DNA of 63,504 bases, the filler included, from Welwitschia mirabilis (taxonomy: Eukaryota), in assembly GCA_051453625.1 (NCBI GenBank). It is 7 parts of one record of this genome, joined end to end, with 100 filler letters (N's around TTAATTAATTAA, not from the genome) between each part and the next. Parts side by side here need not be neighbours in the genome. Positions count along the whole stretch, not along the records: positions 1 to 15,148 come from JBOZIK010000001.1; 6 more parts are not named here. One strand, 5' to 3'. The position numbers and the translations under genes were made by a program. Positions 4,101 to 62,463 of the stretch are shown piece after piece; position 1 is the stretch's first letter, and each line of letters begins with the position of its first letter. Under the pieces are notes generated by a model that saw nothing but the letters and a program-made list of their open reading frames with translations, did not search any database and was not told the origin of the DNA.

Positions 4101-5498
4101 TGTTGTGGTGCAAATTTATGTGATCTAGAAGTCCTTAGGTAAACTTGTAATCAAATAACTTGTAGAAAACACACGTTAGTATAGATGGAAGTTCATCCAA
4201 ATGTCATAATCCAACAAAGGCACTAGTCTTAGAGTTAGAGAATTAATTTTGCTAATGTATTTTTGTTCTTTTATCCTTAGAAAAACTAAAAGGAAATAAC
4301 TTAAGTAAATGCAATGCTTAAATGGAAATGAAATGTAAGTAAATAGGAATTGAATGTAATGCAATGAAAATGGAATAGGAATGGGAATGAAAATAGATCC
4401 TACTTGGATCTTAGTCTTTCTTTCATAAAGACCACTTCTCTATAACTTATATAAAAGAAGAAGAGTATTCACTAGTTCTTAATCAATATAAACTATGATA
4501 TCTACCGAAGTAAGACTTGAAATGCAATATGAAAAGAAAGAAATAAACAATGCAAATTAATTCTCCTAAACAAGGTCAACCTTAACAAAGGTTGCTCTTA
4601 TGATCTAAATAAACCAAAGCTTGTCCCCTAACTAAGATCAACTTAAATCATAAGGGAGATGCATAATAATAAGATGAAAGAAGAGATTGTATTAATCCAA
4701 TAAAATCAAAACAACATCCACTTACAACATTAGAATAACAACACCTCAATGGAAGAGACATAACTTGAAGTTAAGGAGACTCCTTTCTGCAGTATGGAAT
4801 GGACCTCTTACCCTTTAAGCTTCCATCACAAGTATCAGGTACACAAGATGAGGAGAAATGAAGGAGGAGAAGGGAATTTATAGATTTTTCAAGGAGGGAT
4901 TTGGAGGTAAATCCTAAAGATGGGAAAATAGAAACCTTAACAACCCACATGGGTCGTTTGACCCTATTTATAATAGAATTTATTACTACAGTGTAAAAAA
5001 AGTTATCATCTTGTATGTCATCCATACGATAAGTGAGACAATACCACCTTAATGGCTTAGGCAGTGTGACATGTGCTGTCATTAGCCCTATGGGTTGTTT
5101 GCATGTAGTTCTGATGCCATTGTCCTATTTGTCATCTAGATGACTATATGATCAATAGTCTATCAACATGTGTCCCGTGTGCTACTATCGGTGCCACAGG
5201 TTTCTGATTAAGTCAGCCAATAGGTCGTCCTGGTTGTCATGAGGATGATAGATAGGACAATTGTCTTATTTTACTCTTTTGTCTAAGGTGAATCAGCCTC
5301 TGTATTATATAGTTCTTCTTCCAATTCTGTAGTATCAAAATAAAACTGGAAAACTGCCAATAATACCAAATATCACATGTTTTATTGATTATCATATCGA
5401 ATCATCATAATTATTAGTATTGCACCAAAACCTATATGAATGTCCTGCAAAAGTACTCAAAATACACCATCAAATTCCCACAAATTAGCATCACAACA
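4101..5498 (-). mobile_element. Complete 3' LTR (~1.4 kb) of a family A Athila-like element
   Basis: Termini TGTTGTG (4101) and CACAACA (5498) form an inverted repeat. Reverse complement aligns along 28972-30200. PPT directly adjacent. Confidence 0.9.
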
Positions 5499-5513: not shown

Positions 5514-7027
5514 CCTTATCAGAAACTAATAAAGTAAGCAATTAAATAGATTGGAAGCTAATTTATTTAAGATGAAAATAATGCCTGTAAACTGAGTTTA
5601 TAGAAAATGATATTAATAGCAGATGATTAATATAAGTATTAAAAATTTCCCTATGCCCCCTACTTAAACATGTCATTATGGAATGTATGCAATACACATA
5701 TAGAAATCATGAAGTAAAACGTGATGACTCAAAAAGTGAAACTGTGTATACATGATCTGGATCATCATGACACTGAAGTAGTTTTTATATTGAATGATTT
5801 AGGTGATTAGAAAGACATGGCTATGAAAAACATATGCAAGTACTATTGGATTCTGCATGATAAATTGCATGAATGTGCTAAAAATTTTATTCAAATTGTA
5901 TGAAGGATGCATTAAAAATAACTCATCAAAATTTGATCATGAAAGCTTAGGATTGCTAAAAGTTGTTTGTTGATTTTACTAGATTAACACCCAGAAAGGT
6001 GTCCTGTTCTCCCCAACAGGAGAAGGAAGATGTCCTGAATTACACTTGTAACAAAAAAGCAAGTGTCGTTCCCTCTATTTTGGGGATGACAAAAGAATAT
6101 GACATACTCCAAACATCGGCTATAGAGAGGAAGATGAGATCTGAAGAACTCAGAAAATCAGAAAATGTAGGAATGCAAGGTAAAAGAGAGAGTGACCTAA
6201 GAAATAAAATGAATGAAGGGCTTGAAGGATGAATGCATGATGGAGAAATGAAAAAGGATCATAGAGGAAAATACTACTCAAAGATGCCTTAAATGTTCCT
6301 AAATGCATGGAAAGATAGAACTCATTGGATCAATAAAACCTGTCATAAAGAAATAACCATCCTCTAGAAAACATCATAAGAAACTAGAAAATGTTTAAGC
6401 CCATGATATAATACCTGAAAAAGTATTAAAAAATGACTTTGAAAATTCCAACAAAACATTTAGAGAAAAATAAAATGAAAATGGATAATTAGGAACATAA
6501 AGAAGATTGCATTATTACCCTAAATGCCATCCTAACAAATTCCTATAGTAACAATAATAAAATCACTTGATTAATGATGCATGACATAATGTATAAATTC
6601 ATAAAGTTCCACTTAATAGGGCAATGATTATTACGATGTCAAGTATGATAATGTTATTAAACAATAAATGATGAAATAAAAAGTTATTTAAAATACAAGG
6701 ACTTATAAGCTACCATGTCAAGAAAAACATTAAAATCCATAAAGTAGAGTGATCATGTGGAAGTACTAGAAATGAAAGAAAAGTGTTTTATTTTTCCATG
6801 ATGAGGGGAGTGAAACCACTATCAGAGGAGTAAGAACCTACACAGCATGACCGATTGACTCTCCAGTGGAGTTTCCATAGATATCATATTGCACTAACAA
6901 AGGCCTCTTTCGAGAAAATTTACCCTGGTGTACTTGCAGTAGGACATCATGATTACCATATGTGTAAGCATATAACATGAGAGAGCATGATAGTTTTCTT
7001 TTCTTTTCTTTTCTTATCTCTCTCTCT
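5514..7027 (-). mobile_element. Non-coding 3' internal region of family A element (copy 1)
   Basis: Colinear with 7251-8720 and with the reverse complement of ~27050-28960. Confidence 0.85.
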
Positions 7028-7127
7028 NNNNNNNNNNNNNNNNNNNNNNNNNNNNNNNNNNNNNNNNNNNNNNNNNNNNNNNNNNNNNNNNNNNNNNNNN
7101 NNNNNNNNNNNNNNNNNNNNNNNNNNN

Positions 7128-10100
7128 TTACACCAAAACCTATATGAATGTCTTGCAAAAGTACTCAAAATACACCATCAAATTCCCACAAATTGGCATC
7201 ATAACATAGCATCTTACTTAGCCTTGTCAGCACCTTACTTAGCCTTGTCAGTCCCTGATAAACTAAGTCATTAACTAGATTTCAAGCTAATTTGTTTAAG
7301 ATAAAAATAATTCTTATAAAATAAGTCCAAAGAAAATGATATCAATAGTAGGTAATTAATACAAGTACTGAAAATTTCCCTAAGCCCCCTATTTATGTCA
7401 TTATAGAATGAATGCAATACATGTATAGAAATCATGAAGTAAAACGTGATGACTCAAAAAGTGAACTGTGTATGCATAATCTGGATCATCATGCCAACTG
7501 AAGTAGTTTTTATATTGAATGATTTAGGTGATCAGAAAGAGATGGATATAGAAAACATGTGCAACTACTACTAGGTCCTGCATGATAAAGTGCATGAATG
7601 TGCTGAAAATTTTATTCAAATTGTATGAAGAACACATTAAAAATAACTCATCAAAATTTGATCATGAAAGCTCAGGACTGTTAAAACTTATGTGCTGATT
7701 TTACTAGATTAGTACCTAATAGGAGAAGGAAGATGTCCCAAATTTCACCTATAATAAAAAAAGCAAGTGTCATCCCCTATGTCATGGGGATGACAGAAGA
7801 AGATGACATACTCCAAACAGCAGATATAGAGAGGAAGATTGAGATCCAAAAAAACTCAAAAAATCAAAAAATGTAGGAATGCAAGGTAAAGAAGAGAGCG
7901 ATTTAAGAAATAAAATGAATGAAGAGCTTGAAGGATGAAGGCATGATGGAGAAATGAAAAAGGATCATAGAGGAAAATACTAGTCAAATATGCCTCAAAG
8001 TTTCCCAAACACATGGAAAGGTGAAACTCATCAGATTAAGAAAACCTAATCATAAAGAAACAACCATCCTATGGAAAACATCACAAGAGACTAGAAAGTT
8101 CTTAGACCCATGATATAATGCTTGAAAATGTATAAGAAAATAACTTTAAAAATTCCAATAAAACAAATCAAGAAAAACAAAATAAAAATGGACAACTAGG
8201 AACATGAAGAATATTGCATTATTACCCTAAATGCCATCCTAATAAATTCCTATATTAGCAATCATAAAATTATCTAATTAATGATGCATGACATAATGTA
8301 TAAATTCATAGAGTTTTACTTAATAAGGCAATGGTTATGATGATGTCAAGTATGCTAATGTTATCAAACAATGAATGATAAAATAAAAAGATATTTAAAA
8401 TACAAGGACTTATAAGCTACCATGTCAAAACAAATACTAAAACCCATAAAGTAGAGTGATCATGTGGAAGTACTAGAAATAAAAGAAAAGTGATTTATTT
8501 TTGTATAATGAGGGTATTGCAACCACTATCAAAGGAGTAAAAACCCACACAACATGGTTGACTAACCCCCCAGTGAAGTTCCCACAGCTACCATATCACA
8601 CTGCCAAAGGCCCCTCTTGGGAAAATTTACCCTAGTGCACTTGCAGTAGGACATCATGATTATTATGTGTGTAAGGATATAACATGAAAGAGCATGGTAG
8701 TTTTATTTTATTTACTTATGTTTTTTCTCTTTTTTTTTTGAGATGAGTATCATTCCACATGATCAAGTACTTGTAAGGATAAAAGTGAAGAAATGAAATG
8801 AGTAACAAGATAAAATCCTACAAAAACAACTAATTACTTACATTATTAAAAGATAATAAAAGAATCAAAACATCTTCCTATAGATATATGAATGTCTAAA
8901 AATTGGATTAAGCTAATTTTTATTGTTGTAAATTCCCAAAGTAAAATATTAATCATCATGGAAACTTTATAAGTAAATACAAATATCAAGTTAAATATGT
9001 TTAAGTGATAACATGATGTTAATAAAAGGGATAAGTTAGGAAAGAATTTAGATGATGGCAAAAGGAAGGTCCTCCTCTTAAAGAAGGGCTTCTAAAACAA
9101 GTGCTTCTATCATGTTCAAGGTTTTATTAGAGAATGACTCGTAAAGCGTTAACCTTTGTCCCTTCACTTTTTGGATTTCTTTAGTATTTAGATCAAAAAT
9201 TTCAACTAAGCCATTGAGTGTACCTTTTTGATAAGATAAGGGCCTAATCATTTTGAAGTTAACTTATTATGTAGAAGGTGTACTTGGGTGTAATACAACA
9301 AGACAAATTGGCTAGGTTTAAACTATTTATGAATAGTCTTTTTTATCATGTCGAAACTTGGCCTAAGCCTTATGAATAAGTTGATGATGTAAGGCATGAG
9401 TATATTTTTCATCTAGGTGTTCAAGTTGAGCTAAATAAATTTTGAGATTTTCATTTAAATCAACAAGGTTCAGTTAATGGATAAAATGATAAGAATTATA
9501 GCAAACATTAACTAGTAAAATACATACTTTACCATACACAAGTTCATAGGGTGAGAAACCTAGGGAGTTATGCCAAGTAGTACAATAAGCCCAAAGAACA
9601 TTATTAAGTTTAGAGAACCAAGTCTTCTTATTAATAGAGCCTAATTTTTCAAGCATTTTCTTGATCTCTCTATTTGAATTTTCATCTAAGCCATTAGTTC
9701 GAGGATGATAAGCACAAGTAACTCTATGTTCAACACCAATGAATAGAAGAAGTTTTTGAAAAAGTTGGTTAATAAAATGGGTATCTTAATCACTAATGAT
9801 AATTTTTGGAAATCCAAATCATTGAAAAATATGAGGTCAAACAAAGTTACACACTATTTGGGCATCATTTTTAGTGGTAGAAGCAGCTTCAACCCATTTA
9901 GTAACATAATCCATAGCTACTAAAATATATTTTTTTTCATTTGAAGATGGTAAAATTAGGCCCACAAAGTTAATTCCTCAATAATCAAAAGGTTCACATT
10001 TGAGTATAGGTTTAAGGAGCATGTCATGAAAATGAGTGAGATACCATAACATTGACAAGCATCACACTTCCAAGAAAAATTAAATGAATTCTTTAAAAGA

Positions 10101-15148: not shown

Positions 15149-15248
15149 NNNNNNNNNNNNNNNNNNNNNNNNNNNNNNNNNNNNNNNNNNNNTTAATTAA
15201 TTAANNNNNNNNNNNNNNNNNNNNNNNNNNNNNNNNNNNNNNNNNNNN

Positions 15249-15840: not shown

Positions 15841-16080
15841 TATTTTGATACCAATTTGTAGGATTTTAATCAAGTATTTAGGTACTTTTATATAACATTT
15901 ATATAGGTTTAATTGTAGTTATAATGCTTATGGAGAATTGATGGAATAATCACTAAAACATGTGATTCTTGGTATATTTAGAGGTATCTCAGGCTTATTT
16001 TAATTGTTTGTGCCTTGAAGAAAAGATTAATTATGCAGAAGACTTATTTCTCTTAAGCTAAAGAGATAAAGAGACTTGTC
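15841..16080 (+). mobile_element. 5' portion of a family A LTR, interrupted by a family T insertion
   Basis: TATTTTGATACCAATTTGTAGGATTTT matches the LTR start at 28972. Homology ends at GAGACTTGTC (16080). Confidence 0.8.
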
Positions 16081-16481: not shown

Positions 16482-16996
16482 GGTTATAACAGTATTTTAA
16501 TAGTTCATGTCTTGAAAGAAAGATTAACTATGTAGAAGAATAATTTTCCTTTGTGCTAGAAGATGGAGAGGTCTGTCATCCTTATTATCATCACCATGAT
16601 AGATAGGATAATAGCATTGTAGTAGCCTATTACAATAGTGACATGGAATAGATATAGAAGTGAACGAGCCCTTTTTTTAAGGAGGTATCATCCCTAGTAT
16701 CATTCTAACGACATGAAGGATGATGATTCATTTGGAGCCAACTGCTAGGTCACTTATGGAGCTGAAAACTGATGAATTATCTATTATTATGGGGATTCAT
16801 CCCTAATTTCATATCCACAATAGTTAAATAATAAATGTTTTGTATAAATAGGATTAATTTATCTTATAACAGGTTCATGCACCCCATATGGGTTGTTAGG
16901 GTTTCTTCCTTAACTCCTAGGGTTATGATTCTATAATCTTTAATGTAAACTATAAATACCTCCCTTGTTTTCAATTCCAACTTGTCCTTTTGTACC
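16482..16996 (+). mobile_element. Internal segment of another family A LTR
   Basis: Aligns to ~29125-29510, including GGGTTGTTAGGGTTTC and the TATA box CTATAAATACC. Confidence 0.8.
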
Positions 16997-20011: not shown

Positions 20012-20757
20012 TGTAAAACTATAAATACCCCCTTTTCCTTTACTTCCATTTCCATATTTTTTATTGAATATTTTTATGATAAAAGATTGAAGGATAAGAG
20101 GTTTATCCATTAGCTATAGAGAGAAGATGTCCTTTATATTTGGTTGAGTATCCTCCATTGAGGTGCTACTACTTTGTTGAAAGTAGATGTTAAATTGATG
20201 ATCAATTAAAAAACTATTTTCACTTCTATTATGTAAATCTCTCTTATGGTTTAAGTTGATTATAAATTGGTGATAGATTAATAGTTTATCTAGATCATAA
20301 GGGCAACCTTTATTAAGGTTGACATTTTTAGTTTATATCTTGCATATCATTTCATTTTATTCCATTTCCATATTTACATTTATTCATGTTTTGTTTGTTA
20401 TATCTTATAGCTTATGTTGATTAAGAACAAGTGATAATTCTTTCTCATTAATCTAATTTATAATAACTGATCTTGATGTAAGGAAGATTAGTATTCAAAT
20501 AGAATCATCATTCATCCATTTGTATTTCATCATCATTCAACTTGGATTCCATTTGCATTATTATTTATCTTCATTTACTAAAGGAAAAAGACTAAAACTA
20601 TTTTATAAAATCAATTCTCTAACTTCTAATGTAGTTCTTTTAATGGATCACCACATTCAGGTTTACTCCTATCTATACTAGTATGTGTTTTTATGCAACT
20701 ATTATGATCTATAGGTTTTATCTAAGTATTTAAATTGTACAAATTTACACCACAACA
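20012..20757 (+). repeat. 5' LTR (3' part)
   Basis: Aligns with 29474-30200. Contains TATA CTATAAATACCC at ~20019 and ends CACAACA. Confidence 0.9.
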
Positions 20758-20760
20758 TTT

Positions 20761-20778
20761 TGATGCCATTATCAGGGA
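20761..20778 (+). other. Primer binding site, tRNA-Asp type (decayed)
   Basis: TGATGCCATTATCAGGGA, 3 nt after the LTR, differs from the Athila PBS TGGCGCCGTTGCCGGGGA only by C>T/G>A changes. Confidence 0.8.
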
Positions 20779-26620: not shown

Positions 26621-28971
26621 TTTAACATGATAGAGTAACTTGTCTTGAAAGCCCCTCTTAATGAGGACTTTCCTCCTATCATTGTCTAAATTTCTTCTTA
26701 ATTAATTCATTAGGTAGCTATTATGCTATCAATTGAATATCTTTAACTTGACTTATGTATTACTTTATAAAGTTATCATAATTACTAATATTTTACTTGG
26801 GCATTTTAAAATGATAAAATTGAATTAATCCAATTTTAAAGACATTCAAATAACTATGAACTTCATTCAAAAGGAATATGACTTTATTCTTTTTAATTTA
26901 ATCTTTTAATGATGTGAGTATTTAGTTGTTTTTGCATGTTTTTACTTGTTTCTCATCTCATTACTTCACTTTTATCTTTACAACTACTTGGTTATGTGAA
27001 ATTTTTCTTTTCACTTTAGGGGAAAAAAGAAATTAAAAGAAAATAAATAAATAATAATCATGATCTAAGCTAAAATCATGGTCACCATGATGTCCTATCA
27101 TAAGCACACTGAGGCAAATTTTTTGGAGAGGGGCTTTGGCAGTGTGAGATGATAGCTATGGAAACTCCACTAGGGGGCTAGTTGATCATGCTATGTAGGT
27201 CCTTATTCCTTTGAAAATGGTTATATTCTACTCATCATGGTAAAATAATTATTACTTAAAGGCTATATGACTAGTGATGTCCCTAGTGTCATTAGAGGTA
27301 TTGCTTGTTTTCTATATTCATTTTGCATAGAGTAATTCCACATGATTATTCTACTTTTTTGAATTCTAGTGTTATTTTGATGTATGAGCTAGTAAGTTCA
27401 TATTTAAGTAGCTTTTTTTATTACCATTCATTGTTTAACAATATTAGACATACTTAACATTATCATAATCATTGCTTATTTGATTAGTACTTTATGAATT
27501 TTTACATATATTAAGCATTTTTCATCAAGTGATCTTATTATTTTTACCAAAGGAATTTGTTACGTTGGAATTTAGGGTAGTAAAACAATCTTATTTATGT
27601 TCATAGTTATCCATTTTTACTTTTGTTTTCTTTAGCTCTTTTTTTCAATTCGTCACAGTCATTTTCATACATTTTTAACATAAGATTTTGGATCTAATCA
27701 TTTAGTAGTTTGTTGTTAATATTACTCATAGTTTTTATCTGTGAAGGTTGTTTTTCATTTTTGACAGGTGATGATGATACTATCTTTCTTGAGTTTTAGT
27801 TTTCTACTTTTCCATGCTTACTAAGTTTGAGTACATTTAAGGAGTTCTTTTGGGCATTGCTTCTTTCTACTTAGTGCATAATTATGGTTCCATTCTTTTA
27901 TATTTGAGTTCTTCCACATAAGTATATTTTCATCATTATCATTATTTTTAAGAATGATTCTTTATTTTTTTACCATTTCCTTGATTTTCTATTGATTTTT
28001 TTATGCTTAATTATTGTTTCCCTTACTTTTAGACTTTTTTAAGTTTTTCCTATCTTCCTATAATATCATGTGATAAGTGTCATTCCACATTTGTCATCCC
28101 CATAATAGATAGGATGATAATAATCTTTTTAGCTATATTGCAACCTGGGATGTCTTGATTCACCTAAAGGAGAAGGGGTGGAACTTATTTTTGAGCTACT
28201 TCTAAGATATTAAGCAAAAATTTTAATTTTGAAAGGGTCATTTTTAGCTTTCATAATACATACTTGTGATGATATTGTTTGTATATGATTTCATATTATT
28301 TGAATAATCTTTTATGTACATTATCTAGCAAGATCATAGTAGCATAATCACAGAATTTTTCTATAGCTATGATTTAAAACATCTAAAACATTATGAATAA
28401 GGGAAATAATGTTATGACTATTATTTTAACTTCACCTCTTATAGAATATATTTAAAACTCGCTATAGATTTGTATACATCATTTGAATTATCACTACTTA
28501 GTTTATACACATTAGTTTTAGTATGACTATCTTGGATTATGCATACACATCATCATTTTCTAAAGCTATCATTATTACATCTTATAACAATTTTCTTGTG
28601 TATAACATTCATTTGTTATACTATGATGTGTTAAACATTTTAAATAGGGGTCTAATGAAGATGGAACTAATGAAGATGTTAGTATTTTTATTTCTCTGAT
28701 AATCTTATTGTAGGTATCTAACTTTCATTTTGATCTTAGAAATGATGTCGTCCTCATTTTCATTCAAATGATAAGGAGGATGGCATATCTATTATACATA
28801 CTAACCTATTATTATATTAGTTAATTAATTTTTAATGTTTATTTTTACATGGTAAAAATTCTTAAACTTAATTTACATGTTTTCTAGTTATTGATTATCC
28901 TAATAAAATTGGCTTAAAATATGATTGATCACTTACTTTATCATGGATTAACAAAGCTAAGTAGGAGGCTA

Positions 28972-30200
28972 TGTTGTGATTCCAATTTGTAGGATTTTGA
29001 TGGGGTATTTTAAGTACTTTTATAGGAAATTTATACAAGTTTAGATGCAATTCTAATTATTATGGAGAATTGATGAAATGATCACTAAAACGTGTAATTC
29101 TCAGGATATTTTGAGGAATCTCAAGCATATTCTAATACGTTGTGTCTTGAAAAAAAAGATTAACAATTTAGAAGAATAATTTTTATTAAGCGAAAAAGAT
29201 AAAGAGGCATGTCGTTCCCTGTATCATCTCCACAATAGTTAGGATGATACTACTACTAAAATGAACTAAAGCTACAAAGTTAACTATGATGCTTGAAGCT
29301 AATTGATTACCTCTTCTTATGAATTACCATTTCCATTATCATCCCCGTGATAGTTAAAATGATAACAATTTTGTATGAATAAAAATAATTATATTTGTAA
29401 TGGGGTCATATGCCCCATATGGATTGCTAAGGTTTCTTCTCTAACTTTTAAGGTTTCGCTTCTAGAACTTCAATGTAAAACTATAAATAACCCTCTTTGC
29501 CTTTCCTTCCATTTCCATATTTTTTACCATATATTCCTTTGATGGAAGATTGAAGAATAAGAGGCTCATCCATTAGTTATAGAGAAAATATTTCCTTGGT
29601 TTTGATGATACTACTTTGTTATAAGTATATAATAAATTGATGATTAATTCAAGAACTCTTTTCAGTTCTATTATGTAAATCTCCCTTCTGGTTTAAGTTG
29701 ATTATGATTTGGTGATAGCTTTATAATTTATCTAGAACATAAGGGTAACCTCTAGTCAGGTTGGTATTGTTAGCTTAGATCTTGCATTGCATTTCATTTA
29801 ATTTCATTTTTATATTTGCATATATTCATATTCTATTTGGTACATCTTATAGCTTATGTTAGTTAGAGATAAGTAACAAATCTTTCTAATTGATATAAGT
29901 TATAAAGACTAATCTTGGTGATAAGAAGATTAGTAGTTAAATGAACCCATCATTCATCCATTTTCATTTCATCATCATTCATCTTACATTACATTTACAT
30001 TATTCTTTATCTTCATTTACCAAAGGAAAAATACTAAAAATACTTTGTAAAATCAATTTACTAACTCCTATCCTAGTGCCTTTAATGGATTATGACATTT
30101 GGATTGACTTTCATTTATACTAGTATGTATTTTTTTGCAAGTGTTATGATTTACAAGTTTTACCTAAGGACTTAAAGATTGCACAAATTCACACCAAATA
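28972..30200 (+). repeat. 3' LTR (~1.23 kb), preceded by PPT AAGTAGGAGGCTA
   Basis: Starts TGTTGTGATTCC, ends ...TTCACACCAAATA. Matches the 5' LTR and 4101-5498 (reverse complement). Confidence 0.9.
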
Positions 30201-35020: not shown

Positions 35021-36344
35021 ATCATAAATAATTTCTTCACTATTTAAGAAACCTAATAGTGTGGAAATAATACTTTCACTCTACTTATAAAATAAAAATT
35101 TTTAGACTAGAGAATAAAGAATGTGTCATTTTGTTAAAGTTTATTTAAAATAGTAATTTATTAAGTTATTCAAGATAAAGCTAATGATACTAAAAGAAGA
35201 AGCTAACTTAATAAGTTTTTAATAAGAGATAGTGAATTATCCTTATTAATAAACTTGAGGAGATACATTCCATCACATAATAAAATATCTTCTAGTAAAT
35301 ATATATTTTTTAGAGAGAGAGAGAGAGAGGAGAAATTATTGTGGTTTACTGCAAGTGCACTAAGGCAAATATTCTCGAGAGGGACCTTTGGTAGTGCAAT
35401 AAAGTACTTATGATAACTTCACTAAGGGGTCAGTTGGTCACAATCTAGATTTCAAAAAAAAAAAATTGGATTCTTACACCTATGACAATGGTTACACTAT
35501 CCTTATTATTGTTAGAAATTTAAGTTATGACAAATAAAAGTTAAAGAATAGTTGTATCCTAGGAGTCATCTGAAACACAGCTAGTTGCCAAGGCTACAAC
35601 TATATATCATAGCTAACAAAAAAAGAAAAAAAGAGAAAAAGAATTTTATTCTAGTATGTGATGGAATGTAAACCAAAATATTTTTAATTTAATAGCATGG
35701 ACAATAATTAAATTCTATTTTAAAAAAGGATAAAGCTTCATAGTTTTAAAATCATTTTGCATTCTCTTGACAATTTGATAAATTATTTAGCATGAATTAT
35801 CTTTAATGAAACTAATATGTTCATAAGAAAATTAAAAATAGTCATGAAATAAATTTATTCAAAACCAAAATAAAAAATAAAAACTTTATTAAATAAAGAA
35901 ATTTATTACATCATTTCTTAAGACATAACAAAGCCTTGCTCAAACTATTTAAAACTAAGGAATAAATCACTCTAATAAAGAAAATTAATCCTTGAAGTAG
36001 CCAGAGAACTTATTATTTTGATTAGAATGGCTTGTCTTAGATGATGATGCTATAGAACTCTCACCCAAGGGTAGTGTATTCATTTCACTTAGGAATTTTG
36101 ATAACATATTAATTTCGTCTTGGTGAGCTCACCAAAAGTCCTTGTAAGGCTTTGCATTCTGTATCGTCTTCTCTATGATCTTCCCATCAAAACATAATGT
36201 ACTTAGACTAAGTACAGTATTCATTCCTTAAAGCTGATCAACTCTCTGGTTTTCCATCTACATTCATCTAGCTAATTGACCTAAGGAAACATCATAAGCT
36301 AAGTCTTCTTGATTAAGTTGCTGTTATATCTCTTCTGTCCTAAC
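35021..36344 (+). mobile_element. 3' internal region of family D element, interrupted at 36345 by element C
   Basis: Follows the integrase. Contains the conserved motif at 35343-35511 and layout similarity to 50230-51500. Confidence 0.65.
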
Positions 36345-37691: not shown

Positions 37692-37791
37692 NNNNNNNNN
37701 NNNNNNNNNNNNNNNNNNNNNNNNNNNNNNNNNNNTTAATTAATTAANNNNNNNNNNNNNNNNNNNNNNNNNNNNNNNNNNNNNNNNNNNN

Positions 37792-42174: not shown

Positions 42175-45100
42175 NNNNNNNNNNNNNNNNNNNNNNNNNN
42201 NNNNNNNNNNNNNNNNNNTTAATTAATTAANNNNNNNNNNNNNNNNNNNNNNNNNNNNNNNNNNNNNNNNNNNNCCCTGCTCCGCCCAGTTTGTGTTTTT
42301 CGGATTGACAAAGCATTTTCCGTCACCTTTTCTCCTTTTGCTTGAAATAAAAGTTTTTTTCAATTTTTTAATAATGGTCTTCAATATTTTTTTAAAAAAG
42401 AGAGCGGTTTGTTGAAAAAATGTTAATTTGGCATCCTTACTAGTCACGAATGTATAATATCATACCACAACCTCACATTTTCATTTTTTAGTTTCTTAAT
42501 TATTCCTTTTGCTAGTGAGGTTGTAACGTAAATGGTGCAACACTCTTATCCAATCATAACGTTGTGTATTTGAATCTTGAGATGAATTATGTGGTAAATT
42601 ATGAGGCCTTTGACATACCTTAATTTGAATATGACATACCTTAATTTGAATAATGTTGTACTTTTAAGGGAAGTATAGGCACCAAAAGTTTCAAGTTTGA
42701 ATATGACATACCTTAATTTTTTCCCCCAGAGATTGGAATAGTACACAATAGTATTTACGTTGGGTTGGAATCTCAATTCCTATTAAAAACCAATATTCTT
42801 CACATTTAAAACACAATAAAAAAGGTAATGAGAGCTTTCAAATAACACAATTATTTTAGTCCTCAAGTGAAAAGAAAATTATTCAAAGGATTCCTATAAA
42901 AAGAGTACCCTATCCAACCAAAATGCCAAGGCACTTTGGTGGTTGAGCACTCCTGCTTATATTTATCACTTTCAATTCTCTCCCCAATACATGTGGGATT
43001 ATTCACCAACACTTGCCATCTCCTATGGCTCAACCATTGCGTCGCCTCCTATGACTCTTTGTGGGTGGTCCTGCATCAAATCATGTATTTTCTAAGTAGT
43101 TAACACATTTATAATTCCTTTATGTCATCATTGTATATGGAACATCATACAAGCATGATTACAAAGTAAATCTTTTCTTGTAATAAAATTACATTAATAT
43201 GGATATCATATCAATAAGAAACCCTTTCTAATAGCTACATCATATTTAAGATTTATTTTAATAAAGCATGCTCAAGAATTAACCCTTTTTAAAGTCATAA
43301 TTATTCTACCATTATGAACTTTTCATAATAACATCTTGTACTTATTCATACTCCAAATGTCACCCATATAATTAATTGTTTGTTTTATCTAATGGATGAG
43401 GAATGAATGTTGGCCATGCCATCTCTAATTTTCCAAATGATTATTAATTTTATTTGTACAGTCAATGTTGATTGTTGAGCATGAAGTCAATGTTTTAGCA
43501 TTGACTAGATGTCACTTATAGTCATTGATTAAAAAGTCAAAATTTAGCATTTGGTTTTTTTTTTTTTTTACCTTTTTATTTGAGAGGAAATGTTAGTCAA
43601 GAGGATGACTTTAACTTTTTTATGCATGACCAAAGGGACATCTAGACAATAGTTACACATTACGTTTATGGTCAATAACTAACATTAACTTTATGAATAA
43701 ATCCAATGATGCTTTGCTAATTGGATATGAAATGATCAACACTCATTAGTTATAGACTCATCATCATCAACCTTATTAGAAACAAAATTTAAGGAAAATT
43801 ATATAAAGTATTTGTTTATATTTTTAAACACAGAGTTCCGATATATATGTTAGTGAAATAATGATACGCCTTTATATCTTTCTTAAATAATCAATATTAT
43901 GATATGAACACATACATATAGGTATAAGTGTTATGAAGACTATCATTACCAATGGTGGCAAGCATAAAATTGCGCTCAATGTTAGTAAACATATTAAAAA
44001 AAATCATAATATTTATTTTCTCAAAAAAATACATTCATAAAGACTAAAAAATTAATGTGGACATATAAATGCATATAAACAAACACAATTTAGTCCTCGT
44101 CATGCAAAATGTGATCATCTATGAATGTAAAGTCATCTTAAAAATTTATTCATATAGAAAGAAATCCAAAAGTAAACTGGTTTATTTTTATACCTATGTG
44201 TAAGCAAATCTTAAACATTTATCTATAATTCTCTAGACCTATAAAATGCTACTCTTTTAAAATTATTTTTTCGAAGCTGTATTCTATCAATGTTTTTCTA
44301 TGTCTTTACTTTAAAAACACAACATAACTAATCAGTGATTTAATTGATATGACCCTTGAAATTACAATAAAAATTAATCATGTCATATATTTTGATCTGA
44401 TGTTTGTGCATTTATTTAATATTGTCATTCCTTATGATTTATGAGTTGTTAATACTAATGCAAGTAAGTGAAATTTTACATGTTGTACTATGCTAATTAG
44501 AATAATAGATATTTTTTTTTGGACATAGTATGTTAAATGGAATTTTTAAGTAAAAATAAAACTCTAAATGTACACAAGAACATTATTCTACTGGCCTTAT
44601 TACGTATTAATAAATTGTATTAGTAATGAAATCAAAGGTCCATTCATGTAGATTTTGGCTAAATTTTGGCTATTAATATTATCCTTGCATACCTATAAAT
44701 AAAATTTCTAGATCTAGTTATCCCTTTTTCCCGTCATAAAAAGATCCACTTATATTCTCATTTGCTAAACTTTTTCACATAGTATGTCATCTTAATTTTG
44801 TTAATCTAGGTTTGTTATATATATTAATCTTATTACTAATGACATATAAATGAACAAAATATTCAATTTAATATGGTTCATTAGAAGTTGATGGAAGATT
44901 ATTTATTTTCATGAGATAATCATAATCCTTATTTAAAGGATTTTTATCTTGGATATTTCTTAAAATACTCCTATATTAGTATTATGAATGATCATCTCTT
45001 ATATGCTTGTGTATAACATCTATACAATAGTTGTGTTAAACTCATGCTAAATCCCTTAATAGTCTCATTACCAAAATATGGTCAAAGATTTTTAACTACT

Positions 45101-45515: not shown

Positions 45516-45625
45516 TGTTGCGATGCCAATTTGTAGGAATTTGATGTGTATTTGGAGTACTTTTGCAGGACATTTATATAAGTTTAGATGCAATTATGCT
45601 GATTATGGAGAGAGGATAAGATGAT
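45516..45625 (+). mobile_element. Start of a family A LTR
   Basis: TGTTGCGATGCCAATTTGTAGGAATTTGATG...GAGTACTTTTGCAGGACATT matches the LTR start at 28972 and 5498. Confidence 0.85.
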
Positions 45626-45725
45626 NNNNNNNNNNNNNNNNNNNNNNNNNNNNNNNNNNNNNNNNNNNNTTAATTAATTAANNNNNNNNNNNNNNNNNNN
45701 NNNNNNNNNNNNNNNNNNNNNNNNN

Positions 45726-50230: not shown

Positions 50231-51107
50231 AAACTTATAGGTGGAGAGAGTTGTACACATATATTTTCCTCCATAGTCCTATAGTATTATGATAATAATA
50301 ATAATAATAATAAATAACAAAATAAATAAAAGTCTATAAGGTTTAACTTTTAAGAAAGAAAATGGATGTTATTCAAGTTATAAAAATTTTTACTTAGTAG
50401 GTGAAAGTATCTTATAAAAATCAGTAATACTTCAAGAAGGGAAAAATTACAAAGGGTAAGAATGACTAGATTATGAAGGAAAATGAAGGTACTTGTGTAA
50501 TCATTTATGTTAAGTTAAAAAAATGATTAAAAAAAGAATAGTGTCCTATTATAAGTGCACCAAGTTAAATATTCCAAAGAGGGGTCTTGGTAGTGTAATA
50601 AAAGAGTTGTAAGAACTTTAATAGGAGATTAGCTGGCCATGATCAGGGTTTACAATTATATGGATCCTTATTTCTATGGCAGTAGTTGCACTATTCTCAT
50701 TACAAAAATATTTCTTAAAATAAAGGCTCTTTGGCTTTAAATTATAAAAAAAACAATTACTCTCTAGAAGTCATCTGAGGAGTGGTTAGTCTCCAATATT
50801 TTCTTCAAACCAAGTAAACCCTAGAATGAAAAATAAATATTACATAGGATATCATTATTTTATATCAACATTTAGAACATTTGCATAAATGTATCTTTCT
50901 TCTATGTATTTTTAAGTAATAAATTTCTATAAAGATAAAAAAACTTTATACTTAAAGGATTTTTATAATTTGGCATAACAAGAAATGAGTACTAGAATAA
51001 AAGTATCTAAAGCTTATAATTTATTAAAACAAAGATCAAAACTTTTATTTCATTATGTAGATAACAATAGTTCTTATGTTTTATCTTTCAAATAAAAATA
51101 GTCTTAA

Positions 51108-56407: not shown

Positions 56408-56507
56408 NNNNNNNNNNNNNNNNNNNNNNNNNNNNNNNNNNNNNNNNNNNNTTAATTAATTAANNNNNNNNNNNNNNNNNNNNNNNNNNNNNNNNNNNNN
56501 NNNNNNN

Positions 56508-59500
56508 CATTTAGCTTTTTAGATGTTGCAAGTTAAATTCGATCTTTAGAATATTGGAATTAGAAGCACAAATACGCATCGCAATAATGATGATACTAAA
56601 GATTAAGTTTTTTAAAATAATAAAGAATAAGATCAAAGGGTAATCAGAAATAAACTCACCTACTCACACCCTAAAACATACCCAAATCCTCAAAAGTAAA
56701 ATGGTCTTATGTGAATACTAAGAGTTTAGGAAATAAGCAATGTCTCCAATAATGATAAGAACACCACTAATCTTATAATCTAAAATTTTTATTACTACTT
56801 TTCATGATAATAGGAGTGCAACCATAATCAAAGAAGTAAGAACTTGTAAAGTATGACCAACTATAACTACTAATACCATTAATGATTCCTTTCACAAAAA
56901 TTTACCTTATTGTAGTATAAGATCATGGTGACAATGTATTTTAGCATAGATATAATAGATCATGGTCTTTGTTCTTTTTTTATTTTTCCTTCTGAAGTAA
57001 TCCCACATGATCACACACTCAAAAAGATAAAGGTAAAGAAGTGAGATAAAAAAATAGACAAAACATAGTTAAACAATTCAAGACCTTATACCATTTAAAA
57101 AAATTATAAGAACCAAGGAATCTTCCTTCAAAATTAAATTCATAGACATGTGAATGTTTTAATGTTGGGTGAATCTAATCTTATCACTATAAAAATTCCT
57201 AAGTATTAATACTATTTATAAAAACTTCATAAAGTAAATACATAAGATAAGTTAACAATGTTCAAGTAACATCATAACATCCACTAAAAAATTAGGCTAA
57301 AAAATAATTTAGATAATAATAGGAAGAAAGTCCTTTCCATTAAGGGTAACTTCTAAAATAATTGTTTTTTTCATGTTTAAGATTCCATTGAAAGGTTTTT
57401 CATATATTTTCAACATTTATTTATTAATATCTAAGCTGTAAATTTTAATAGAGCTATTAGAATGTACTCTCATTATAAGATTAGGACCTAACCATTTATA
57501 GGTCAACTGATTATATAAAAGATGCAATCTAATATTGTATAAAAGAATAATTAATCAAGTTTAAACTTTTTATGAAGTATCTTTCTATAATATTTGAACT
57601 AAGCTTAAGCTTTGTGAATGAGTTAATGAAGTATAAAAAATGTACATTTTTCATCTAAGTAATTAAGTTAGGCTAATATATTTTTAATATTTTTATAAAG
57701 ATCTATAAGATTAAGTTGGTGAGAAGAATAATAAGAGTTATAACACACATCAACTAGTAAGATACAAGATTTTTCATACACAAGTTCATAAGGTAAAAAA
57801 TTAAGATAATTACACTAATTAGTATAGTAAGCCTAAAGAATATAATTAATATTATAAGCCCAAGATATTTTATTAATAGAGATAAGTTTTTTTAGTATTT
57901 TCTCTATTTCTCTATTTGCATTTTTAGCTTGATCAGTAGTTTGTGGATAATAAGAATAAGGTACAGTATGTTCAATTCCAATGGATAAAATAAGTTTCCT
58001 AAAATGTTAATTAATAAAATAAGTTTCTTAATTACTAATAATAATTCTAGGGGGAAAAAATGTTGAAACATATGAGTTCTACCAAAAGTATAAATAGTTT
58101 AGGCATCATTCATAAAAGTGGGAATAGCTTCAACACATTTAGTAATAGAATCAACAACCAAAAAAATGTAGTTCTTATAATTAGAAGTTAGTTTAATAGG
58201 ACCTATAAAATAAATTTCCTAATAATCAAAAGGTTCACATTTAAGAATAGGTTTAAGAAACATCTCATGAGAATAAATAAGGATACCATAATATAGGTAA
58301 GCATCACACCTTCCAGAAAAATCAAAAGAGTCCTAAAAAAGACTATGCCATTAAAAACTAGAGTGAAGAATTTTTATTGTTGTTTTTTGTTCACTAAAAT
58401 GACCTTTACAAATTCAACCATGGTAAAGATGAAGAATATTTGATCTTTTTCCATTTACATACATATTTTCTCATGATTTGGTTTTTGCACCTATGGTAAA
58501 GATGTTGCTCTATTCATTTATAATTATCTATTTCATGGAGAAAGGATTTACTTTGGTTGTTATTCTAATGTGGTGGTGTTTTTATGGTAACAAAATAATT
58601 AACTCTATTATTATACCAAAGAGGAAGATTAGTAGAAGATATAGCAAAAAGTTATTTATCTGGAAAGGAAACATCAATTATAAGATCATTAAGAGAAGAA
58701 AATAGACGTGATAAATGATCTACTATATTATTATGTCTTTTTGGTTTATTAATGATAGTGAGATTGAATTCTTTTATGACAAGGATACATATAATGAGTC
58801 TAGCACTAGAATTATTTTTGGTCATGAGGAATCTAATAGCTACATGATTAGTATAAACATTCATATAAAAGCCAAAAAGTTAGTGCCTAAGCATATAAAG
58901 GCAAAATATTATTGGTCATGAATTCTCTAACATATCAAAAAAGATACCCATCATTGCACATTGAAAAGTACCAAGATCATTACAAATTCAAAAGACATGT
59001 GTCTTAAGGTAAATGTTCTTGATTCTCATTAGCTATTCAAAGTTAATCATAACCACTCTACCTATCAAGAAAGTAATAAAGGCATGTAATTAGATTATAT
59101 CAAGTATTTAATTATGAAAAGGTAAAGGGAAGTGGTTTTTTTTCGTTATTTCGTCTAACTTTATAAAATCAATACACATCCTTCACTTTTCACCTTTATT
59201 AGAAACTACTATTAAAGGCCTAACTCACTCACTATTAGATATGGTATAAATAATTCCAACATTTATTAATTTAATTATTTCATCTTTTATGACTTATTTA
59301 AAGACTAGGCTAAATCTATGTTGAGGTTTTTTAATAAGTTTTGCATTATCCTCAAGGTAGACATTATGCTAAATAAATGAAGTAGGAATGGCTATTAAAT
59401 CTTTGTTATTTAAGCAAANNNNNNNNNNNNNNNNNNNNNNNNNNNNNNNNNNNNNNNCTTATTAAGGATTAAGATTCTCATTTATTATCAATGATTTATT

Positions 59501-62363: not shown

Positions 62364-62463
62364 NNNNNNNNNNNNNNNNNNNNNNNNNNNNNNNNNNNNN
62401 NNNNNNNTTAATTAATTAANNNNNNNNNNNNNNNNNNNNNNNNNNNNNNNNNNNNNNNNNNNN

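Follow-up and report, generated by a model that had tools for sequence, protein, structure and literature searches.

The window examined in this work, a stretch of 63,504 nucleotides of DNA from Welwitschia mirabilis (assembly GCA_051453625.1), contains a block of approximately 150 nt that recurs behind the integrase region of Ty3/gypsy elements belonging to different families, and the question that this locus raises is what kind of element the block represents and by what it is kept alike in families whose neighbouring sequences cannot be aligned. In an earlier note on this DNA, the block was interpreted as a conserved, non-coding and structured RNA that belongs to no described family. The analyses presented here uphold this interpretation insofar as the block is non-coding, is conserved and corresponds to no described RNA family, but the structured RNA itself finds no support in them.

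Copies of the Block in the Window

The copies of the block, referred to as c1–c6, and the element families in which they occur are as follows:

6796..6948, (-) strand: copy c1, family A (blastn; nhmmer E 2.2e-44)
8503..8655, (-) strand: copy c2, family A (nhmmer E 5.3e-45), with block I at about 8568-8664 and block II at about 8505-8550
27089..27240, (+) strand: copy c3, family A (blastn, nhmmer), in the sole element of the window with both LTRs
35343..35511, (+) strand: copy c4, family D (blastn, nhmmer), with a spacer that is 19 nt longer
50541..50705, (+) strand: copy c5, family D-like (blastn, nhmmer), with a spacer that is 14 nt longer
56802..56920, (-) strand: copy c6, family A (blastn; nhmmer E 3.1e-20), with internal deletions

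All six copies had been located in the earlier note, and both their coordinates and their strands were borne out by blastn comparisons among the copies and by nhmmer (E values of 3e-20 to 5e-45). When a profile of the six copies was compared with the whole window, exactly these six matches were recovered (E 5e-45 to 3e-20), the next best match having an E value of 7.1. A 38-letter core word in IUPAC code, for which up to two mismatches were allowed, was found at three sites in the window as compared to none in 100 shuffles, and it is matched exactly in c2 and c4. The motif is made up of a first conserved part of about 90–97 nt (block I), a spacer of changing length, and a second part of about 45 nt (block II). 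By blastn, the identity between copies was 80% over 151 nt for c1 and c2, 74.5% over 153 nt for c1 and c3, 78% over 88 nt for c2 and c4, 75.5% over 94 nt for c1 and c4, 74% over 92 nt for c2 and c5, 69% over 156 nt for c4 and c5, and 77% over 56 nt for c1 and c6.

The mutual alignment of the family A copies (c1, c2, c3, and c6) extends over kilobases. The alignment of the family D copies (c4 and c5) with those of family A, and also that of c4 with c5, is limited to the motif and a few short pieces of pol, and the earlier observation that the flanks of the two families cannot be aligned beside the motif is confirmed by these blastn results. The motif is a discrete island with a GC content above that of its flanks, as had also been noticed earlier, the GC fraction being 0.40–0.42 in c1–c3, 0.32–0.33 in c4 and c5, and 0.29 in c6, versus 0.28 for the window. 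In addition, a third short stretch of similarity (around ...CTAGnAGTCATCTGA... in c4 and c5) is found 40–80 nt past block II in c3–c6, at the approximate coordinates 27290-27320(+), 35590-35620(+), 50790-50820(+), and 56740-56770(-); it is missing from c1 and c2.

Copies c1 and c2 lie on opposite sides of a gap of 100 N, within a 1.6-kb duplication of 83.6% identity, and they are probably two separate genomic copies that were joined by scaffolding and not a tandem pair. Gaps of 100 N that are flanked by direct duplications (77–84% identity) were observed at 5420-7023/7128-8730, 11577-13253/13364-15043, and 31636-32621/32811-33787. These three gaps probably mark scaffold-joined contig ends of different copies of one family, and the tandem appearance of the sequences around them is untrustworthy. 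Spacers consisting of 44 N, 12 bases, and 44 N were also found (15149-15248, 37692-37791, 42175-42274, 45626-45725, 56408-56507, and 62364-62463). In the two of them that were inspected, the 12-base linker is TTAATTAATTAA, which has stops in all six frames and is an assembly artefact, not biology.

Host Elements and the Position of the Block Within Them

The following features of the host elements were used to place the block:

20761..20778, (+) strand: primer binding site (PBS) TGATGCCATTATCAGGGA, a few bases past the 5' LTR end of the c3 element
28972..30196, (+) strand: 3' LTR of the c3 element (1225 nt)
7136..7206, (-) strand: 5' end of the family-A LTR downstream of c2, which is over-represented in reads
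9111..10040, (-) strand: integrase homology of the c2 element (tblastn with 152 proteins; Pfam rve fragment)

The c3 element has an interrupted 5' LTR that runs from 15841 to approximately 20752-20757. The first letters of the 3' LTR of this element are TGTTGTGATTCC and the last ones ...CACACCAAATA, and it forms direct repeats with the segments 15841-16080, 16493-16966, and 20012-20752; the two ends of the LTR are inverted repeats of each other. The PBS is the only match in the window to an R/Y-degenerate word, and when compared with the tRNA-Asp PBS given for the peanut element FIDEL in excerpts of its description (PMC2844528), it was identical at 12 of the 18 positions, the remaining six being transitions, with no transversion. 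At the corresponding position of the related metagenome locus L057, the sequence TGGCACCGTTGCCGGGGA is found. The integrase homology of the c3 element ends at 26656, 2.3 kb before the LTR, and among the library proteins those nearest to the pol of the host elements are plant gypsy polyproteins. The region that follows pol is decayed and contains only short ORFs without a Pfam match. According to excerpts of two published accounts, a tRNA-Asp PBS, an LTR of more than 1.2 kb, and a long stretch between the integrase and the 3' LTR are traits of the Athila/Calypso elements (PMC2844528, PMC1142308). Going by these sequence characters, the host elements are Ty3/gypsy elements of the Athila/Calypso type, with a decayed tRNA-Asp PBS and an LTR of 1.2 kb.

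The first 70–90 nt of the family-A LTR occur in the window at 7136-7206(-), 5428-5498(-), 15841-15936(+), 28972-29060(+), and 45516-45611(+). At 45516, a CpG is still present in this LTR head and the DNA upstream of it is unrelated. The window as a whole has a GC content of 28% and contains CpG at 0.12 of the expected frequency, and the units of c1 and c2 differ by 156 transitions and 60 transversions. These values indicate that the elements are old, methylated, and deaminated, with a very strong decay of methylated cytosines. Repeat-induced point mutation (RIP) was rejected as a cause of the AT-richness, as the TpA/ApT ratio is 0.91 and CpA+TpG is not depleted, and together with the low CpG value the composition looks like that produced by methylated-CpG deamination.

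To map the integrase, 152 related proteins obtained by searching a library were used as tblastn queries, and pieces of the RT, RNase H, and integrase domains were identified by Pfam upstream of the motif. The earlier observation that the block is sense to the element and, where the integrase is in view, follows it by some 300–500 nt agrees with these results. Every copy is on the strand of the adjoining pol homology, and the distance from the end of the integrase homology to the motif is 314–455 nt at all five of the integrase ends that are in view, i.e., 455 nt for c2, 432 nt for c3, 370 nt for c4, 314 nt for c5, and 439 nt for c6; the integrase end of c1 is out of view because its upstream part is lost in the 100-N gap. 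On the other side, the distance from the end of the motif to the 3' LTR is 1731 nt for c3, 1297 nt for c1, and 1296 nt for c2. With the LTRs and the PBS mapped and a long stretch separating the integrase from the LTR, the motif is placed inside the element, 1.3–1.7 kb before the 3' LTR.

Coding Potential of the Block

That the block is non-coding, as the earlier interpretation implies, is borne out by the stop-rich character of its flanks in six frames and by the outcome of the protein comparisons. Stops are dense in every frame of the stretch between integrase and motif, and the sequence after the motif is likewise dense in stops on both strands; with such flanks on both sides in all six frames, an ORF over the block can consist of at most about 55 codons. 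None of the ORFs overlapping the motif matched a Pfam family, and none of the 152 related polyproteins could be aligned over or behind the motif. The initial two protein searches returned a single distant match apiece. A chromodomain or a coding tail of the integrase was rejected, the stretch between integrase and motif being rich in stops in all frames and devoid of a Pfam domain.

A coding origin would nevertheless account for certain features of the block, which could then be a peptide-coding sequence or a captured piece of a host gene, e.g., a micro-ORF, the beginning of an env-like reading frame, or an integrase C-terminal domain such as a chromodomain. The family A copies start with ATGATG, wherever one copy has a stop in any of the sense frames, some other copy has a sense codon at that position, and related elements capture host genes at this place, as is seen from a LOG-type domain past the extra polypurine tract (PPT) of locus L012. 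However, in c1, c2, and c4 the longest ORFs that cover the block each use a different frame, the spacers of the families differ in length by 14 and 19 nt, the similarity between families A and D is equal across all three frames, and no homologue was detected by a protein search with the 46-aa ORF over c2, the last of these being weak evidence. We consider a coding role of the block to be very improbable.

Sequence Conservation of the Block

The claim that the block is conserved above its surroundings is upheld, as it is kept better than pol and its flanks are not alignable. Over the 88 columns of block I, the identity is 76–82% within family A and 63–74% between families A and D, versus 61–68% and 50–57%, respectively, for codon-aligned pol. 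The columns of block I comprise 41 that are invariant, 35 that contain transitions only, and 12 with a transversion, so that 76 of the 88 columns are invariant or transition-only. Between positions 3 and 100 of the motif, only four differences are fixed between the two families.

Examination of the Block for a Conserved RNA Structure

The statement that the block belongs to no described RNA family holds. A search of the whole window with Rfam gave no match at the gathering score, and when matches with E values of up to 10 were considered on both strands, nothing near the threshold was found on the motif (6400-9000, 35250-35600, and 8420-8740), the best rows that overlap it reaching 12–13 bits versus gathering scores of 40–77. 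A hammerhead or other ribozyme, a tRNA-like element, an snRNA, a 5S RNA, and an SRP RNA were all rejected, nothing of this kind being reported by Rfam. A comparison by eye of the motif with the arms and the A and B boxes of a tRNA was unconvincing.

The structured RNA proposed in the earlier note obtained no support from folding or from covariation. The z-scores for folding of the sense strand in comparison with dinucleotide shuffles were +1.44, -0.38, +0.99, +0.91, +0.24, and -0.54 for c1–c6, respectively, and none of the six copies folds better than its own shuffles. RNAalifold, which had been suggested as a check, gave -7.6 kcal/mol with a covariation term of -0.02. The pairings named in the note are present, with 87.3% of the 181 cells in a scheme of 32 pairs being able to pair on a new alignment, but they occur no more than is expected by chance, since shuffled alignments gave 86.0 +/- 1.0% and 70 of 500 of them reached the observed value. 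A hairpin loop of the GNRA type, as described in the note, is confined to c1 (GAAA) and c4 (GAGA), the loop of c2 being AAGA. In the six decayed copies, changes on both sides were seen in 6 pairs versus 3.8 expected (53 of 500 shuffles reach this number), and the covariation score was 0.279 versus 0.253 in shuffles (reached by 60 of 500). As a set of six decayed copies has low power, the fold is to be regarded as unsupported rather than refuted.

The block might still be a folded cis-acting RNA, such as an export element of the CTE/RTE type, a structure for packaging or dimerisation, an IRES-like leader, or a ribozyme. It is always on the sense strand of the transcribed region, its cells pair much more often than the 33–57% obtained when the partners are slid, and eight of the nine differences fixed between families A and D are in unpaired columns (estimated P of about 0.1). 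A surplus over slid controls is, however, expected for any scheme that is derived from the same sequences, and the changes on both sides all are from GC to AU, which deamination would produce anyway. In the light of these points and of the folding, shuffling, and Rfam results described above, a folded RNA appears unlikely, and we do not think that the block acts through a stable fold of its own. The best reading of the data is that the motif is constrained at the sequence level rather than by its fold.

Several other pairing possibilities were also considered and set aside. The palindromes GTGCAC, TCTCGAGA, and ATAGCTAT and three AGTGCA boxes are present in about the number that we estimate for chance. 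When the motif was examined for complementarity to the PBS, to the LTR head, and to the 5' leader, nothing stood out above shuffles: the duplex of c1 with the PBS was matched by 14 of 300 shuffles and that of c3 with its own PBS by 220 of 300, pairing with the LTR head gave no signal, and against the element's own 5' LTR end, leader, and gag start the minimum was -27.8 versus a shuffled mean of -26.8.

Purine Tract Upstream of the Block

A purine-rich tract is found upstream of the motif at the following positions:

7003-7027, (-) strand: purine tract on the c1 side
8715..8739, (-) strand: purine tract of c2 (23 of 25 purines)
27018-27042, (+) strand: purine tract of c3
35311-35335, (+) strand: purine tract of c4
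50434-50458, (+) strand: purine tract of c5 (21 of 25 purines)
56969-56993, (-) strand: purine tract of c6

A tract with at least 23 purines in 25 positions is present within 120 nt upstream in five of the six copies, for which the background probability is 0.017 per segment. In c4, c5, and the copies seen in RNA it adjoins the block at a distance of about 10 nt or less, and in family A approximately 45–55 nt separate the two. Of 53 related plant metagenome loci in which the downstream DNA is long enough, 33 have a tract of at least 22/25 after the integrase and 25 one of at least 23/25. An extra PPT in the linker between pol and env has been reported for Athila4 and Calypso (Wright and Voytas, 2002, as cited in an excerpt of PMC2829016), and the internal purine tract, which has the same place, matches this extra PPT of the Athila/Calypso lineage. 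The tract differs in sequence from the short 3' PPT of the same element: the stretch before the 3' LTR reads ...AAGCTAAGTAGGAGGCTA, whereas the internal tract is A-rich and of the AAAAGAAAAG type. Because of this A-rich composition, unlike that of the 3' PPT, the tract may not be a primer for the plus strand at all.

Representation of the Block in Public Reads

Two RNA runs, which were chosen by species label, and two sets of DNA contigs, together carrying two organism labels, were compared with the segment 7128-10100 at a likeness of at least 80%. The RNA depth has a peak over 8528-8727, with values of 24+33.5 and 13+12 on 8528-8627, versus mostly 0–2 in the adjoining bins (8428-8527 and 8728-8827). 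The reads fit only from about 8568 to 8664, which corresponds to block I, i.e., the first 95 nt or so of the motif. Upstream of it the loose ends of the RNA reads are purine runs, and downstream of it the reads continue into family-D-like sequence in which CpG is still present. The word depth of block I in the DNA sets was 313,592 and 574,690, and that of the LTR 5' end (7128-7227) was 303,159 and 390,342, while the other bins, excluding 7128-7227 and 9028-9127, ranged from less than 1,000 to about 140,000. Block I is transcribed, and its abundance in DNA is on a par with that of the LTR end. This pattern is seen across the runs labelled as two organisms. The RNA libraries are apparently unstranded, the two mate directions being about equal, and the strand of the RNA is not readable from them. 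At the low depth available over 7128-10100, no RNA joints, molecule starts, or pile-ups of ends were seen at the motif. Strong over-representation, both in the DNA contigs and in the RNA reads, is also shown by a second block, the LTR head of 70–90 nt, whose limits at 7136 and 7206 are marked by the depth and by loose ends.

An abundance of DNA equal to that of a proven LTR head is also what could be expected if the block were itself the 5' end of a present or former LTR, viz. the start of the family D 3' LTR behind its PPT and, in family A, a relic left after an exchange of LTRs; in that case, recent exchange between families, and not a function of its own, would account for its conservation. 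The block starts with TG, the purine tract abuts it in c4, c5, and the RNA reads, and the integrase is merely 314–370 nt upstream in family D. In addition, recombination between distant Athila families has been reported, as stated in an excerpt of PMC2410132. On the other hand, an integrase end precedes five of the six copies (upstream of c1 this is hidden by the gap) and none of the six heads a pair of LTRs. For family A, the start of the LTR is established at another place, its inverted ends matching, and in most DNA contigs the block is preceded by internal sequence of family A (loose ends at 8658-8660). Homology between the motif and the LTR head was rejected, the Smith–Waterman scores being no better than those of shuffles; this comparison covers the LTR of family A, the sequence that follows the block in family D being present only once in the window. 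Overall, we regard an origin from an LTR end as quite unlikely.

Occurrence of the Block in Related Elements

An alignment of twelve plant integrases was used to collect related elements, which yielded 80 loci with 57–71% identity to a Vitis (grapevine) protein. The motif profile found no copy in these 80 plant loci (491 kb; best E value 0.95), a profile of the stretch that follows the motif showed no similarity to the same loci, and the 38-letter core word had no match in the metagenome and viral collections. Furthermore, in 574 pairs of loci whose integrases share less than 76% nucleotide identity, the matches downstream were few and formed no peak. As the block is absent from the 80 loci and from the two collections, the lineage does not in general depend on it. 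On these sequence comparisons, the presence of a family-shared block behind the internal tract is special to the genome of the window and the second labelled organism.

Two of the related loci (L012:7532-8218 and L057:7765-7860) contain, past the internal purine tract, an ORF in which a LOG-type "Lysine_decarbox" domain was recognised (PF03641; E 6e-20 and 1e-8, respectively), and this resembles the capture of a host gene by a retrotransposon. A TATA-like sequence, CTATAAAA, precedes this ORF in L012 and is also found in most of the related loci; L057 lacks that stretch.

The arrangement in L012, where the stretch behind the extra PPT consists of a TATA-like sequence and then an ORF, is relevant to the possibility that the block serves as an internal U3-like promoter or enhancer for the post-pol region. 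The conserved boxes and the CpG islands upstream of env in Sireviruses provide a parallel for this (excerpt of PMC2829016). The block also heads a post-pol region of 1.3–1.7 kb, and it is a GC-richer island in AT-rich DNA, with CpG still present in the transcribed copies. However, no starts of downstream molecules were seen at the low depth of the reads, no TATA is conserved among the six copies, and no 3' ORF is demonstrable in the decayed copies. Regulatory parts of LTR elements, moreover, usually evolve fast, whereas the block is the best kept part of these elements. A promoter or enhancer role is consequently held to be rather improbable.

Putative Function and Significance of the Block

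For a block of this place, orientation, non-coding nature, conservation above pol, transcription, and LTR-end-like abundance, we tentatively propose that it is a cis-acting signal, specific to the lineage and constrained in its sequence, that lies beside the internal PPT and has a putative function in the element. The block would represent a non-coding module in the linker between the integrase and the 3' region of Athila/Calypso-type, tRNA-Asp-primed elements, where it may act together with the internal PPT as a signal in the replication cycle. Candidate roles for it include a packaging or dimer signal or a signal for plus-strand synthesis. The co-resident families could keep the block alike either through shared trans-acting machinery or by exchange through template switching. 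A role in replication is favoured because, among the non-coding parts of LTR elements, it is those serving replication that remain constant, whereas the regulatory parts drift. Against such a signal, priming by a PPT alone needs no 150 nt of conserved downstream sequence.

A more specific form of this proposal, which we regard as unlikely, is that block I is a cis signal for packaging, dimerisation, or primer selection shared by diverged families which draw upon a common pool of proteins and form a cross-mobilising guild. If this were the case, the families would keep block I nearly letter for letter for this reason, and the common currency of the guild would be block I and the LTR head. Non-coding signals that remain constant amid drifting proteins are usually tied to invariable steps of replication, examples being the primer site, the PPT, and the ends of the LTR. 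The proposed signal would provide a handle on the little studied internal PPT region of the plant "endogenous retrovirus" lineages, and it would bear on whether different families share their replication machinery. Even if the block is only a relic of recombination, it still marks an exchange between families.

Comparison with Known Systems

The CTE, RTE, and MTE are RNA export elements that are found downstream of pol in simple retroviruses and murine retroelements and are strongly folded. The block in the window differs from them in that it shows no fold signal.

In HIV-1, the central PPT and the central termination sequence are associated with a flap of about 99 nt. Internal PPTs are present in both Ty1 and HIV-1, as mentioned in an excerpt of PMC2829016. 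The module in the window resembles the HIV-1 central PPT and the Ty1 PPT2 in that a defined stretch of about 100 nt comes after an internal plus-strand purine tract. However, the internal PPT of HIV-1 and Ty1 is a copy of the 3' PPT and lies in coding sequence, whereas the tract in the window is unlike the 3' PPT and lies in a non-coding region. The likeness is one of arrangement.

In the Sireviruses, conserved boxes are clustered upstream of env (Bousios et al., 2010; excerpt of PMC2829016). As in the window, these are non-coding motifs that are common to divergent families, are located near PPTs or upstream of the env-like region, and are GC-rich or resemble CpG islands. The Sireviruses, however, are Ty1/copia elements, and according to the same excerpt their boxes are short and palindromic, have a CGG-CCG core, are repeated 8–32 times, and occur also in the LTR (PMC2829016). 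In contrast, the window contains one long block per element, which lacks the CGG-CCG core and is present in no LTR of the window.

The lineage traits of the host elements (tRNA-Asp PBS, long LTR, and long post-pol region) are shared with Athila4 and Calypso, in which the extra PPT has the same position in the linker after the integrase as the purine tract described here (excerpt of PMC2829016). In the published accounts covered, mostly at the level of abstracts and with Wright and Voytas (2002) represented by later citation rather than by the original, no description of a conserved block behind the extra PPT was found. The feature reported for Athila4 and Calypso in that excerpt is the tract alone, whereas in the elements of the window it is accompanied by the conserved block of about 150 nt behind it.
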